Source: an uncultured Acidobacteriota bacterium (lineage in GTDB: Bacteria; Acidobacteriota; Thermoanaerobaculia; Multivoradales; UBA5704). From it: 64,000 nt of DNA. Below the pieces are notes generated by a model, which worked only from the letters and a program-made list of their open reading frames with translations, was not told the DNA's origin and did not search any database. Shown here piece by piece: positions 53,129 through 56,590 of this stretch. Positions within the stretch are counted from its first letter, which is position 1. The number at the start of each line of letters is the position of its first letter. The DNA is taken from the NCBI GenBank assembly GCA_963700145.1, contig OY969474.1, positions 512,001-576,000 on the forward strand, in the 5' to 3' direction. Made by a program: the position numbers and the translations under genes.

Positions 53129-53344
53129 TCAGGGCTCTCCGTCCGGCGGCGGCCGGTCGGCCGGATCGTCCGGCCCGCCGCGGCGCGCCCGCTCCTTGAG
53201 ACGCTCGTACTCGCGGCGCGGCAGCGGCGTGCCGTGCGTCACTGCGCCCGGCCCGCCTTCGGCGGTCCGCTCTTTGCCGCCGCACTCGGGCGCGGTGGGA
53301 TCGAAGCCGTGCCCGGCCTCGCTCTCGCCGCGCTCGCTGGTCAT
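53129..53344 (-). CDS. Small hypothetical protein (71 aa)
   Basis: ATG 53344 preceded by AAGGAAA; ends 17 nt before the next gene on the same strand. Confidence 0.5.
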   Translation of the reverse strand: MTSERGESEAGHGFDPTAPECGGKERTAEGGPGAVTHGTPLPRREYERLKERARRGGPDDPADRPPPDGEP

Positions 53345-53398
53345 TCGCTCTGTTTCCTTCTTTCCTGACATCTTGTATATCCCGCCTTGCAGCTATCT

Positions 53399-53625
53399 GG
53401 TCGCGGCGCTGGGCGCGCCGCGGCGACTTTGCCTGGGGCTTAGGATCACGGCAGCTTTCCGGGGAAGGCCGTTGGTACGCCTGAGGCCACCGAGCCTGTG
53501 CGTTAGATCGGCCCCCCGCCCTCTTCGTCCAAGCCGTGGAGTCTCTGAGGCCCGGGAGCCTGCATCCACAAGCTGGGTTGGCGAAGGCGCAGGGTCGGGG
53601 GACCGGAAAGCCAGGATAGCCGAAA
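53399..53625 (+). ncRNA. Putative IS110 bridge RNA
   Basis: 5' hairpin followed by two stem-flanked loops; segments at 53451, 53501, 53539 and 53601 match left target, right target (reverse complement), left donor and right donor (reverse complement) in the canonical order. Confidence 0.7.
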
Positions 53626-53635
53626 GGAGGCCGCG

Positions 53636-54639
53636 GTGAAACCACTCGTCCAGCTCGCCGGCATCGACGTCAGCGCCCGCTCCCTCACCGTCGTGGTCGA
53701 GCCGCCCGGCAGCGGCCGCGAGCGTCTCGAGTTCGCCAATGACGCCGCCGGGCACCGTCAGCTCATCCGGCGCCTCGGCAAGCAGGGTCGGCACGCGCGC
53801 GTGGCTCTCGAGGCCAGCGGCATCTACAGCCTCGATCTGGCCATGGCTCTGCACCGCGCCCCCCGCATCGAGGTCATGGTGATCAATCCACGGGCCGCCC
53901 GCGACTTTGCCAAAGCCTTCCTGCAGCGCTCGAAGACCGACGCCCTCGATGCCGAGGTCCTGCTCGAGTTCGTCCGGCGCATGCCCTTCCAGCCCTGGCA
54001 GCCGCCACCCACCGAGGCTCTCGAGCTCCGGGCCGTCACCCGCCGCATGGCCGCCCTGATCAAGGCCCGGAGCCAGGAGAAAAACCGCCTCCACGCCGCC
54101 CGCCACTGTCATGAGCTGAGCGATCTCGTGCGCCACGACATCGAGGTCAATCTCCGTCATCTCGACCGCCGCATCGCACGCCTCGAAGAGCAGGCCGTCG
54201 ACTTGGTCTGGGAGCACCCTGAGCTGCGCCGGGATCTTCTCCACCTGACCTCGGTCCGCGGCATCGCCCGCACCAGCGCGGTCCAGATCCTCGCCGAGCT
54301 CAGCGTGCTGCCGCCGGACCTCTCGGCACGCCAGTTGGTGGCCCATGCCGGCATCGACCCGCGGGCTTCGAGTCCGGCGAGTCGGTCGCCAAACCGGCCC
54401 GGATCTCGCGCGTCGGCAACCGCTACCTGCGCGCCGCGCTCTACATGCCTGCCCTGGTCGCCTCGCGCTACGAGCCCCATGTCAAAGCCTTCTACGACAT
54501 GCTCATCGCCCGCGGCAAAAAACCGAAGCAGGCGCTGGTGGCGGTCATGCGCAAGCTCCTGCACTCGATCTACGGCATGCGCAAACACGGCTGCGATTTT
54601 CAGGGGGAGAAGTTCTTCGCCATGCCCCAGGAGGCTTGA
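53636..54639 (+). pseudogene. IS110 recombinase/transposase with a 1-nt frameshift near 54362
   Basis: AGGAGG RBS; GIDVS, ALEASG, INP, KTDALDA; after AGIDPR the homology (GFESGESV...ISRVGNRYLRAALYMPA...AVMRKLL) continues in the -1 frame to TGA at 54639. Confidence 0.85.
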
Positions 54640-54661
54640 CTTGGAAGAGAGTATCTTACGT

Positions 54662-56590
54662 CTACGCCTCCTTGCGGCCGGCGGCCCCTTTCAGGTGGCG
54701 GTCCAGGAAGGCGAGGATGGCGCTGTAGGCCTTCTCCTGGTTCTCCTTCTTGGCGAAGCCGTGCCCCTCGTCGTCGAAGACGACGTACTCGACGGGCACG
54801 CCGCGCTTCCGCGCCGCGGCGACGATCTCGTCGGACTCGACCTTGAGGACGCGCGGGTCGTTCGCCCCCTGGAGGACGATGAGCGGCCGCTCGATCTTGT
54901 CGGCATGGAAGAGCGGCGAGATGCGGCGCAGGTACTCCTGGTCCACCGCCGGGTCGCCCAGCTCCTTGTAGATCGCCTGGCGCGCCGACTCCCACCAGGG
55001 GGGGATGCTCTCGAGCGTGCGCAGCCAGTTGGAGACGCCGAAGAGGTTGACGCCCACCTCGAACTCCCGCGGCCGGAAGGCCAGCGCCGCGAGCACCATG
55101 TAGCCGCCGTAGCTGCCGCCCATGATGCCGATCCGCTGCGGATCGACGGCGCCGGTCTCGACCAGCATCTTCTTGCTCGCCACGCAGTCGTCGAGGTCGG
55201 CGTTGCCGTGCTTGCGGTCGTCCATCCTGTAGAAGGTCTTGCCGTAGCCGCTGCTGCCGCGGTTGTTGATCGAGTAGACGACGTAGCCGTGGTTGACCAG
55301 GAACTGGGTGAGGCCGCTGTAGCCAAGGCGCGACTGGTCGCCCGGCCCGCCGTGCACCGAGACCAGCGCCGGGAGCTTGGCGCCGCCCCGCGCCTGGTGC
55401 GGCAGGTACAGGATGCCGGGGATCTCGACGCCGTCGTAGGAGCGGAAGCGGACGACCTTGCCCTCGACCAGGTGCTCCGGGTCGATCGCCGGGTTCAGGT
55501 TCTGGGTCAGCCGGCGCGGCTCCGCGGCCGCGCCCAGGTCGTGGACGTAGAGGTTGCGCGGCGAGCGGCTGGTGTCGGCGTAGAAGGCCATGTGCCGGCC
55601 GTCGCGCGAGATATTGACCGAGGTGATGTCGGCGTCCGGCAGCTTCGGCAGCCCGACCGGCTGCATGGTCGCCGCCTCGAACAGGCGCACCTCGGTCCTG
55701 GCGTCGGCGTTGATGCCGACGGTCAGGTAGAGGCCGTCGCGCGAGAAGGTGGCGTAGGTGACGTCCCAGTCGGGGCGCAGGACCTCCTGCCGCGCGCCGG
55801 TCGCGAGGTCGTGGCGCACCAGGTAGGCGAACTCAGTCCCCTCGTCGGTGGTGAAGAGGAAGGCCTTGCCGTCCGGCGTGAACTCCTGGGCGGCGGCGCT
55901 GACGCCGTCGCCGCCGGCGAGCTTCTTGGTCTCGCCGCTCGTGCGGTCGTGGAGGTAGAGCTCGACCTCGGAGGTGCCGACGGGCTTCGCCAGCGCCAGC
56001 CAGCGGCGGTCGGGGGAGATCGCCCCGACCTCGAGCGCCTGCTCGTTCTTGTAGAGCAGGGTGCGCCCGTAGCCGTCGAGGGTCACCTCGTAGAGGTCGA
56101 AGACCTTGGGGTCGCGCTCGTTGGTCTGCAGGAAGAGGGCGCGGTCGTCGCGCGAGTAGCCGACGAAGGCGGCCTTGAGCTTCTCGCCCGGTGTGAGGTC
56201 GCGCGCCGTGCCGTCGAGCTCGCGGACGTAGACGTGGGTGAGCTCGTTGCCTCCCTGGTCGCTCTCGTAGGCGAAGCGCTCGTCGGCGGGGAAGTAGCCG
56301 CGGACGAGGACGGCGTCGGCCGTCGAGCGGGTGAGCGGTTGCGGCTCGCCGCCGCCGACCGGCACGGCGTAGGCGTTGTAGACGCCGCTCTGGTTGCTGC
56401 TCACCAGGACCTTCGTGCCGTCCGGCGAGAAGGAGGAGCCGGTCATGTTGGTGGTGGCGAGGAACTGCTTGATGGTGTACTGGGGAGGTTGAGTAGAAAC
56501 GGCCGGCGTGGCGGCCGGCGAGCCGGCGGCGAGGAGCGCCAGGAGCAGCGCGGCGAGGCCGCCGAGGAAGCTGCGGAGCATGGTCGTCAT
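54662..56590 (-). CDS. Secreted S9 family peptidase (prolyl oligopeptidase/DAP-like)
   Basis: Signal peptide, WD40/PD40-like propeller, VHGGP, GGSYGG, GANDPRV, DEGHGF. Confidence 0.93.
   Translation of the reverse strand: MTTMLRSFLGGLAALLLALLAAGSPAATPAVSTQPPQYTIKQFLATTNMTGSSFSPDGTKVLVSSNQSGVYNAYAVPVGGGEPQPLTRSTADAVLVRGYFPADERFAYESDQGGNELTHVYVRELDGTARDLTPGEKLKAAFVGYSRDDRALFLQTNERDPKVFDLYEVTLDGYGRTLLYKNEQALEVGAISPDRRWLALAKPVGTSEVELYLHDRTSGETKKLAGGDGVSAAAQEFTPDGKAFLFTTDEGTEFAYLVRHDLATGARQEVLRPDWDVTYATFSRDGLYLTVGINADARTEVRLFEAATMQPVGLPKLPDADITSVNISRDGRHMAFYADTSRSPRNLYVHDLGAAAEPRRLTQNLNPAIDPEHLVEGKVVRFRSYDGVEIPGILYLPHQARGGAKLPALVSVHGGPGDQSRLGYSGLTQFLVNHGYVVYSINNRGSSGYGKTFYRMDDRKHGNADLDDCVASKKMLVETGAVDPQRIGIMGGSYGGYMVLAALAFRPREFEVGVNLFGVSNWLRTLESIPPWWESARQAIYKELGDPAVDQEYLRRISPLFHADKIERPLIVLQGANDPRVLKVESDEIVAAARKRGVPVEYVVFDDEGHGFAKKENQEKAYSAILAFLDRHLKGAAGRKEA

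Follow-up and report, generated by a model that had tools for sequence, protein, structure and literature searches.

The locus raises the question of whether an IS110-family insertion sequence sits where its own bridge RNA would have sent it. The preliminary description of the window (the whole 64,000-nt stretch of DNA that was analysed) had read all four guides of the RNA against the element's own ends and insertion site, and had suggested that a core longer than CT and patterned mismatches might point to a variant recognition rule. Such a reading depends on where the element ends, and empty sites and other copies allow the ends to be fixed independently of the guides. With ends so fixed, 53372-54656 is very probably a single IS621-like insertion sequence of the IS110 family, with a bridge RNA in its left end, now a relic, seated at a site that is not cognate to that RNA. 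The ends and their surroundings are as follows.

53365-53371, plus strand: left target flank CTGACAT, as in the empty sites of G001, G003 and G004
53372-53373, plus strand: CT core, left copy; every copy starts CT-TGTAT
53374-53635, plus strand: left non-coding end, bridge RNA-encoding, opening with the right donor arm TGTATAT
54647-54656, plus strand: right end, comprising the left donor arm GAGAGTAT and the right copy of the CT core
54657-54662, plus strand: right target flank TACGTC

Three genomes of the same genus (G001, G003 and G004) have the empty site ...CCTGACAT|TACG..., with a left flank that ends at window position 53371; in each of them CCTGACAT is followed directly by 2 nt, either TC or CG, and then by TAC. 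Homology among copies begins at 53372, and the start CT-TGTATAT is common to four other copies (L002, L019, L020 and L021), of which L019 has GAGAGTAT-CT as its right end. Soil contigs of relatives cover only ~53372-54660 in 4/4 runs, with zero depth in the bins 53300-47 and 54692-720, and break off at 54656-54662. The element thus delimited measures 1285 bp with one CT core counted, and has no terminal inverted repeats between 53372 and 54656. CT stands at both of its junctions (53372-73 and 54655-56), as it does at both ends of 27/27 elements for which we have both ends. The occupied site, CTGACAT-CT-TACGTC, lies between two minus-strand reading frames: an S9 peptidase gene, whose stop codon occupies 54662-64, and a small frame of 80 aa, whose ATG (53369-71) ends at the left flank.

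These boundaries decide most of what had been proposed earlier, namely an element at 53399-54656 with a TATCT core, a target GCAGCTATCT|TACG, a donor joint GAGTATCT|GGTC and a variant recognition rule. The right junction, GAGTATCT|TACG (54656|54657), was correct. The left one had been set at 53398|53399, 27 nt inside the point where homology among copies begins; empty sites and other copies, the very comparison to which the description had appealed, place it at 53371|53372. With the left boundary at 53372, GCAGCTATCT is internal to the element, so that the proposed target keeps its right half and loses its left; the proposed donor joint likewise keeps its left half, while GGTC gives way to the joint GAGAGTAT-CT-TGTATAT. 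It also follows that the TATCT found at 53394-98 and again at 54652-56 is shared by coincidence, the core being the usual CT. Because the left end had been misplaced by 27 bases, the new recognition rule falls, and what is left is a canonical element. In this one copy the four strings do match as described (8/10, 7/8, 7/8 and 6/7), and TATCT is present at both positions; yet the 27 nt of 53372-53398 are common to four other copies and to the soil contigs, and the empty sites end at 53371, so we give that model next to no credence.

The recombinase gene, which settles the family, is read in two frames.

53624-53630, plus strand: ribosome-binding site AAGGAGG, with a GTG start at 53636
53636-54364, plus strand: recombinase N-terminal frame (RuvC-like DEDD domain, coiled coil and start of the Tnp domain), through ...AGIDPR, from Pfam and the IS621 alignment
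54364-54365, plus strand: 1-nt deletion (frameshift) immediately before the FESG serine motif, from the tblastn frame switch and the soil contigs
54367-54639, plus strand: recombinase C-terminal frame (remaining Tnp domain, FESGESV...), with a TGA stop at 54637-39, from Pfam and the IS621 alignment

Pfam finds DEDD_Tnp_IS110 (PF01548) at residues 8-154 (E 4.4e-28) and Transposase_20 (PF02371) divided between the two frames, its C-terminal piece at E 6.1e-9. PDB matches were to IS621 and ISCro4 only. The best is IS621, to which the N-terminal frame aligns over residues 9-238 of chain 8wt6_A (E 3.1e-27), with the GID, LEA(S/T)G and KTDxxDA motifs preserved, and the C-terminal frame over residues 241-321 (E 4.5e-14); the ISCro4 transposase (PDB 9t56), compared by protein alone, comes second (E 4.9e-27 N-terminal, 1.7e-13 C-terminal). 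The Tnp domain, whose C-terminal part holds in its FESG motif what we take to be the catalytic serine, is present but out of frame with the N-terminal domain after the deletion behind 54364. The broken frame therefore marks a defective member of the IS110 family, not a non-member. A search of the genome with PF01548 returned this copy and a truncated one only, with no other intact IS110-family recombinase, and the five copies found in the genus (the window copy, L002, L019, L020 and L021) are all defective.

That the element belongs to the IS110 family and has an IS621-type bridge RNA in its left non-coding end had been recognized from the start, and the domains and structures just listed bear this out, as does a comparative fold. 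A search of genome contigs for related loci gave 6 loci at 33-45% identity, and the useful copies came from a wider genome search; homologues of the left end lie upstream of the recombinase gene in 38/41 non-duplicate loci. Leaving out L021, L028 and L029 (partial RNAs) and removing identical or near-identical copies, we folded 25 distinct sequences of the 35 aligned. The resulting features, with the guides that they frame, are these.

53399-53428, plus strand: 5' stem-loop (GGTCGCGGCGC...GCGCCGCGGCGAC), from the single-sequence fold
53460-53471, plus strand: target-binding loop, basal stem 5' strand; pairs with 53509-18, with compensatory changes
53474-53482, plus strand: left target guide GGTACGC followed by CT, a variable segment directly 5' of a conserved stem-loop (loop segment 53472-82)
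53483-53498, plus strand: target-loop stem-loop (AGGC/GCCU); 4 pairs, 100% of cells paired
53499-53508, plus strand: right target guide TGCGTT, then AG (core complement), then the handshake guide AT; contains CGTTAGAT
53509-53518, plus strand: target-binding loop, basal stem 3' strand, from the comparative fold
53521-53536, plus strand: donor-binding loop, basal and inner stems, 5' strands; pair with 53575-87, with compensatory change in 9/12 pairs
53538-53546, plus strand: left donor guide GGAGTCTC(T); includes GAGTCTCT
53547-53562, plus strand: donor-loop stem-loop (AGGC/GCCU); 98% of cells paired
53564-53574, plus strand: right donor guide ATCCACAAG (53564-72), then a 2-nt handshake position, CT
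53575-53587, plus strand: donor-binding loop stems, 3' strands, from the comparative fold
53593-53604, plus strand: conserved 3' hairpin GGTC-GGGG-GACC, helix 6 of the alignment

The predicted RNA has two internal loops, each flanked by stems and containing a stem-loop. Its 33 pairs are formed in 89.5% of cells across the 25 sequences, and 16 of them are changed on both sides. None of 500 shuffles reached the score of this fold, a count that, like the permutation count given below, overstates the support because the sequences are kin; slid controls were 33-53% paired, and RNAalifold arrived at the same helices on its own. One pair of the target-loop stem-loop switches from GC (14) to AU (11), and the donor-loop stem-loop is without covariation signal because it is nearly invariant; the sequence of the 5' stem-loop is not kept among distant copies. 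Folded singly, the window RNA is no more stable than its shuffles (z = +0.56; 144/200 equal or better it), and the minimum-energy structure so obtained is not that of the comparative fold. Searched against the Rfam covariance models, 53372-53635 gave nothing even at E up to 10, the 4 weak matches all being at 54617-54900. On the comparative fold, the left end is predicted to encode a canonical bridge RNA. Two stems had been thought to frame its loops. The GGGGC/GCCCC stem falls away, since its 3' arm belongs to the helix with 53460-71, in which compensatory changes occur; CCTGC/GCAGG is 86% paired only by virtue of its conserved arms, 113-395 of 500 shuffles reaching its measures.

The fold also sorts the four strings previously read as guides, all of which are present at the coordinates given for them. 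CGTTAGAT (53501-08) was in the right place, as right target guide plus handshake, and so was GAGTCTCT (53539-46), as left donor guide. GCAGCTTTCC (53451-60), taken for the left target guide, lies 5' both of the target loop and of its covarying basal stem, and GACCGGA (53601-07), taken for the right donor guide, is the 3' half of the conserved 3' hairpin. Their matches of 8/10 and 6/7 hold between two internal segments of the element and drop to 5, 4 and 4/10 and to 4, 2 and 4/7 in three close copies, across which GACCGGA is unaltered although the target supposed for it differs, without co-variation.

In relatives, the segment equivalent to the left target guide matches the left flank, and the variable 6 nt before an invariant AGA match, as their reverse complement, the right flank. 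We scored guide positions against 7 nt to the left and 6 nt to the right of the core in 14 representative elements: 138 of the 182 positions match, as against a permuted mean of 83.7 (sd 7.6), and 0/20,000 permutations reach 138. The test omitted the window copy and L019 (whose guides are those of L037), repeat copies with the same guide set (L027, L024, L060-65, L044, L057 and L031-33) and elements that had not both flanks (L046, L020, L002, L025, L033, L051 and L034); the left guide of L054 was scored at 3, being one base out of register, and is 7/7 by eye.

On the donor side, the left guide matches the right end GAGTATCT at 7/8, with one internal mismatch (C for A) that is fixed in the lineage; other lineages have GGAGTATC. 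The right donor guide, AT(CC)ACAAG, pairs with CTTGTAT at 7/7 around a 2-nt CC bulge. This is the discontinuous pairing, of 9 RNA bases on 7 donor bases, described for right donor guides (PMC11208160, PMC11208158), and the donor stretch AT-CT-TGTAT is identical, residue by residue, to positions 6-14 of the IS621 donor (PMC11208158). The base after the left donor guide covaries in the family alignment with the first base of the right donor guide, marking a contact. The donor-loop handshake CT (53573-74) showed no pairing with left-flank positions 6-7, actual or predicted.

The element is a further member of the known IS621-like kind, not a new type. IS1111 elements, a subgroup with the same recombinase family, carry their RNA 3' of the gene; here the guide RNA instead precedes the gene, and only 17 nt separate the recombinase stop codon from the right end, which makes this the IS110-group layout. 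With IS621 of Escherichia coli it shares the order of domains (RuvC-like DEDD, then Tnp with the serine motif), a bridge RNA that is placed ahead of the gene, in the left end, and runs from 5' stem-loop to target loop to donor loop, the CT core, -35-like and -10-like hexamers divided across the predicted joint, and the handshake A after the core complement. It differs in that the sequences are only distantly related, that the RNA region spans ~53390-53605 as against 177 nt (PMC11208158), that the left-target loop segment is 11 nt long in the window lineage, that the right target guide may extend to 6 nt rather than 4 nt, that a natural mismatch interrupts the left donor guide, that the lineage has an extra conserved 3' hairpin, and that this copy is frameshifted and at a non-cognate site.

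It is this last difference that answers the opening question. L037, the closest relative with an intact recombinase (70% identical), carries the same guides and scores 10/13 against its own flanks, and the flanks of the window copy score 5/13 against its own target loop (2/7 for the left guide, 3/6 for the right). The mean for non-cognate combinations is 5.2, and a score of at least 5 is reached at 24.4% of the genome's 622,706 CT sites; in the lineage's other copies, too, the left arm matches poorly, at 3, 3, 4 and 3 of 7. Since the occupied site thus matches the target loop no better than chance, the insertion was presumably off-target or guided by another RNA. Two further ways of matching the site were tried by eye and rejected. 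Donor half-match insertion, as presented in bioRxiv 10.64898/2026.08.31.748434, finds agreement between CTGACAT and AGAGTAT in the last two bases only, and between TACGTC and TGTATA in the first base only; and if the element is supposed to have gone in the other way round, the reverse-complemented site offers no match centred on CT. The last seven bases of the left target guide recur as TACGCCT at 54663-69, a coincidence for which we have no explanation; placed 7-13 nt rightward of the crossover and forming part of the flank in empty sites, TACGCCT cannot be the target that was used.

The site might instead have matched the target loop when the element arrived, in a canonical insertion whose flanks or guides drifted later. 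In its favour, enough time has passed for the gene to break, none of the five copies found in the genus is without defects, and the right arm still keeps ACG and one G-U-compatible position. Against this, three relatives in which the element never inserted have exactly this left flank, CCTGACAT, which has therefore not drifted, and the guides are ancestral, GGTACGC-CT with TGCGTT being common to L019, and TGTACGC-CT with TGCGTT occurring in intact L037; we regard later drift as very improbable. The broken gene could itself be questioned, if the base missing behind 54364 were an assembly error and the copy still able to move. One assembly alone carries the deletion, and related copies in all four metagenome runs have an extra A at this point. 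Those contigs, though, come from related copies and not from the source genome, the missing base (GG|GC) is not in a run of one letter, and the sister copies in the genus are defective likewise, so that an intact gene seems unlikely. The window copy, whose recombinase is split by a 1-nt deletion seen in one assembly, is, to judge from its reading frames, a dead relic.

How the element would have moved when intact can be sketched from IS621 with the help of two hexamers.

53376-53381, plus strand: -10-like hexamer TATATC, 17 nt from TTGACT across the joint of right and left ends
54636-54641, plus strand: -35-like hexamer TTGACT, overlapping the stop codon, in the right end

By analogy, the excised circle would join GAGAGTAT-CT-TGTATAT, setting the -35 hexamer of the right end 17 nt from the -10 hexamer of the left end. 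The arrangement TTGAC(N)-17-TAT... recurs across the joint in 22/27 elements and is a predicted promoter; formed only at the circle joint, it would drive the bridge RNA. By base pairing, this RNA would in turn bring the donor joint to a GGTACGC-CT-AACGCA-like target, with serine/RuvC-type strand exchange presumably taking place at CT. Neither circle joints nor empty-site joints turned up in the soil contigs, a kind of data that would not reveal rare circles.

As a discovery the locus carries little weight, since it adds to the known IS621-like elements only a further, dead example from a soil bacterium; its lesson is that an empty site is needed before guides are read. The family alignment gives ~20 natural guide/target pairs in clear register, including 9 copies in one genome, and these pairs, together with the covarying donor-guide contact, may help the cataloguing of bridge RNAs, although Supplementary Data 2 of PMC11208160 (tables of natural guides and targets) may list this lineage already. 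The window copy itself is a documented natural insertion at a site that its target loop does not predict, and so bears on current work on off-target and half-match recombination (bioRxiv 10.64898/2026.08.31.748434). We put forward tentatively, as a possibility that falls somewhat short of the probable, that this natural insertion was not specified by the element's own bridge RNA, in which case either unguided landing at CT would be commoner than the guided model implies, or guidance would have come in trans, from a sister element with the same donor arms and another target loop.

Empty sites, other copies and metagenome contigs agree in placing the limits of the insertion sequence at window positions 53372 and 54656. 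It measures 1285 bp when the CT, present at each of its junctions, is counted once. In the same-genus genomes G001, G003 and G004 the flanks adjoin without the element, reading ...TTTCCTGACAT-TC-TACCCCTACGCC, ...CCTGACAT-TC-TACGCC and ...CCTGACAT-CG-TACGCC, respectively; the left-flank alignment stops at 53371 and the right flank picks up at 54661/54662. G002 also lacks the element, with a left flank too diverged for placing the joint. Homology of the copies compared (L002, truncated and from the same genome as the window; L020 and L019, from G003; L021, from G004) begins at 53372 as CT-TGTATAT(C/T)CCGC, preceded by unrelated left flanks, and the right end kept in L019 reads ...GAAGAGAGTAT-CT before unrelated flank. 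Soil and rhizosphere metagenome contigs (four runs from four studies), 88-99% alike to the element, cover only ~53372 to 54656-54662, with zero depth in outer bins 53300-47 and 54692-720 in all four runs. The preliminary description had itself proposed comparing boundaries with the empty site and other copies; that comparison was run, and they differ from its own, its left junction (53398|53399) falling 27 nt within the element by empty sites, copies and contigs alike. What it read as left target, GCAGCTATCT, belongs to element sequence, and its 'shared TATCT' core is a coincidence with internal CTATCTGG. The donor joint is GAGAGTAT-CT-TGTATAT and the target CCTGACAT-CT-TACGTC; donor positions 6-14 of IS621 (A, T, C, T, T, G, T, A, T), as given in PMC11208158, are the same nine bases in the window element.

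Features of the element and its surroundings (window coordinates unless a contig is named)
53129-53371, minus strand: 80-aa ORF, its ATG at the element's left edge
53472-82: segment 5' of target stem-loop, TTGGTACGC-CT
53499-508: segment 3' of target stem-loop, TGCGTT-AG-AT
53538-46: left donor guide, GGAGTCTC(T)
53546 and 53564: covarying pair (columns 119 and 140 of A2, an alignment of 25 distinct left-end RNA sequences), U:A in 10 and C:G in 8 sequences
53564-74: right donor guide segment, AT-CC-ACAAG-CT
53636-54639, plus strand: IS110-family recombinase gene (Pfam and structure-database matches)
54662-54664, minus strand: stop codon of S9 prolyl-oligopeptidase-family gene (Pfam Peptidase_S9, E 2.2e-50)
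G000:C1:5251076-5251572 (window's own genome), minus strand: second copy, L002, 90% identical

The N-terminal 245 residues of the recombinase match Pfam DEDD_Tnp_IS110 (E 4.4e-28), while the Transposase_20 domain is spread over two frames. Among solved structures its only relatives are the transposases of IS621 and ISCro4, the N-terminal frame aligning with IS621 residues 9-238 (E 3.1e-27) and the C-terminal frame with residues 241-321 (E 4.5e-14). With intact relatives as tblastn queries the frame switch falls at 54358-64; in all four metagenome runs the contig spanning that point carries an additional A behind 54364, and relatives read DPR-S-FESG there. As assembled, the window copy is one base short just ahead of the Tnp-domain serine motif. 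A single assembly stands behind the missing base, which could be an assembly error; defects mark each of the five copies seen in the genus (one frameshifted, two truncated, one internally deleted, one partial). Genome-wide, Pfam search found PF01548 in the window copy and the truncated copy, and in no others. We regard the window element as a canonical but defective IS621-like element.

No Rfam family matches the element's left end. For 38 of the 41 non-duplicate loci (all but L035, L049 and L052), nhmmer placed homologues of this end 5' of the recombinase gene. In A2, near-invariant blocks are broken by four hypervariable segments. The bridge RNA structure has five elements: the target loop has a basal stem and a stem-loop, so does the donor loop, whose basal stem is in two parts, and a hairpin lies at the 3' side. 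Across the alignment 89.5% of the cells of its 33 pairs are paired, and both sides have changed in 16 of these pairs; the covariation score was 0.269 vs. 0.141 for shuffles, none of 500 shuffles reached these values, and slid controls were 33-53% paired. RNAalifold, run blind on A2, returned the same helices and one extra pair, 53546/53564, between the position that follows the left donor guide and the one that opens the right donor guide. This covarying pair lengthens the donor stem-loop in free RNA and recalls the A131:U159 contact of IS621 described in PMC11208158. That paper also gives a layout shared by the window RNA: a stem leads into the left guide, then come a stem-loop and the right guide with its two handshake bases, and a stem ends the series, which is then repeated for the donor. 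The donor stem-loop is nearly invariant and hence without covariation, and the window RNA folded singly did no better than shuffles. Of the stems proposed earlier, the 3' arm of GGGGC/GCCCC pairs instead with 53460-71, with compensatory changes, and CCTGC/GCAGG is 86% paired through conservation alone, its measures being reached by 113-395 of 500 shuffles. CCTGC (53559-63, overlapping the donor stem-loop) and GCAGG (53589-93) are complementary and strongly conserved without covariation, and could be an alternative pairing or mere conservation. Separately, L021 (G004:C31) has a tandem duplication of the RNA target-loop region, and L023 and L024 (genome G015) have a second CTTGTATCTTCTCT left-end start 40-194 nt within the first, resembling a partial left-end duplication.

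The four guide strings quoted in the preliminary description do stand where it put them, and GAGTCTCT is correctly the left donor guide. CGTTAGAT is also correct, covering the right target guide's 3' part, the core complement and the handshake AT, but four of its eight matches (ATCT) hit the element's own end and core, not the target. GCAGCTTTCC sits immediately 5' of the target loop, and what it had been matched to is element sequence (close copies match at only 5, 4 and 4 of 10); GACCGGA makes up the 3' half of a conserved hairpin, GGTC-GGGG-GACC, and is constant in close copies though its supposed partner varies (4, 2 and 4 of 7). The observation of an IS110 element with bridge-RNA guides survives in part, without its special interpretation. 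Both donor guides fit the ends of the window copy itself: 7 of 8 positions of the left one agree with GAGTATCT, and the right one pairs the whole CTTGTAT around a two-base bulge, the 9-on-7 pattern of IS621 (PMC11208160 and PMC11208158). The window lineage's left donor guide has a C-for-A mismatch absent from intact L037 and L046 and from every other lineage.

Guide register was tested by reading the ends of relatives, with 14 representative elements each having its own guide set. When the left guide is compared with the 7 nt preceding the core, and the right-guide reverse complement with the 6 nt following it, 138 of 182 positions agree; with flanks permuted among the elements the agreement averaged 83.7 (sd 7.6, maximum 125) and never reached 138 in 20,000 trials, a count that overstates support, since relatives are not independent and left flanks are C-rich (null left-arm mean 3.7/7), though the effect is still large. 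Examples are L022 (CCCATC-CT and GTCC), L026 (TCAGGG, 6/6) and L030 (TCCCACC, 7/7); L037, intact and with the window's guides, occupies TGTCCGC-CT-AACGGC and scores 10/13. Genome G056 has nine copies of a relative with 57% identity, and the eight that were read (L044, L054, L060-L065) make up a clean set of natural targets: each occupies a (T/C)CCGGC(C/T)G-CT-A(C/T) site that fits the left guide, and guidance on the right is limited to two bases.

The window's target flanks match its own target loop at 2/7 positions on the left and 3/6 on the right (4 with one G-U pair). The resulting 5/13 equals the mean for 230 non-cognate pairs (5.2), 60% of which reach at least 5; the genome's 622,706 CT sites include 24.4% that score 5 or more and 40 that score 10 or more. 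The left flank is conserved in relatives without the insertion, and the window guides are common to L019 and L037; therefore drift after insertion does not explain the mismatch. Donor-arm half-match insertion, as set out in bioRxiv 10.64898/2026.08.31.748434, does not fit the site either. The lineage's other defective copies match in the left arm through ...CGC-CT only (3-4 of 7). We infer that the window insertion was off-target or guided in trans. At 54663-69, 7-13 nt beyond the crossover, the right flank carries TACGCCT, the same seven bases that end the left target guide (53476-82). Empty sites already have it in the flank, and it may be coincidental or represent a half-site close by.

The element sits exactly between the S9 peptidase stop codon and the ATG of the 80-aa ORF. 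Because these lie 1-7 nt apart in relatives' empty sites, where the last peptidase codons (AAGGAGGCG) resemble the small ORF's ribosome-binding site, the insertion probably uncoupled the ORF from its translation signals. L002 starts CT-TGTATATTCC after a different flank (CATGGTCGC) and ends at the equivalent of 53872, with unrelated sequence beyond. Soil, rhizosphere, sediment and freshwater metagenome assemblies (runs X1-X17, at least 10 studies) contain a quarter to a third of the stretch's sampled words, and the close element relatives in the four aligned runs lie in other contexts.

By analogy with IS621, as presented in PMC11208160 and PMC11208158, excision would join the right end to the left end, setting TTGACT (54636-41) 17 nt from TATATC (53376-81) as a predicted promoter. 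Of 27 elements, 22 show the same arrangement across the joint, the others being one with 18-nt spacing and four with TTGAT or TTGAA. Bridge RNA from the joint promoter would grip the donor joint in one loop and the target in the other, and the recombinase would exchange strands at CT. The window element adds one member to the known IS621-like type, the special interpretation first given to it being refuted, and its non-cognate insertion site is the one feature that lifts it above low interest.
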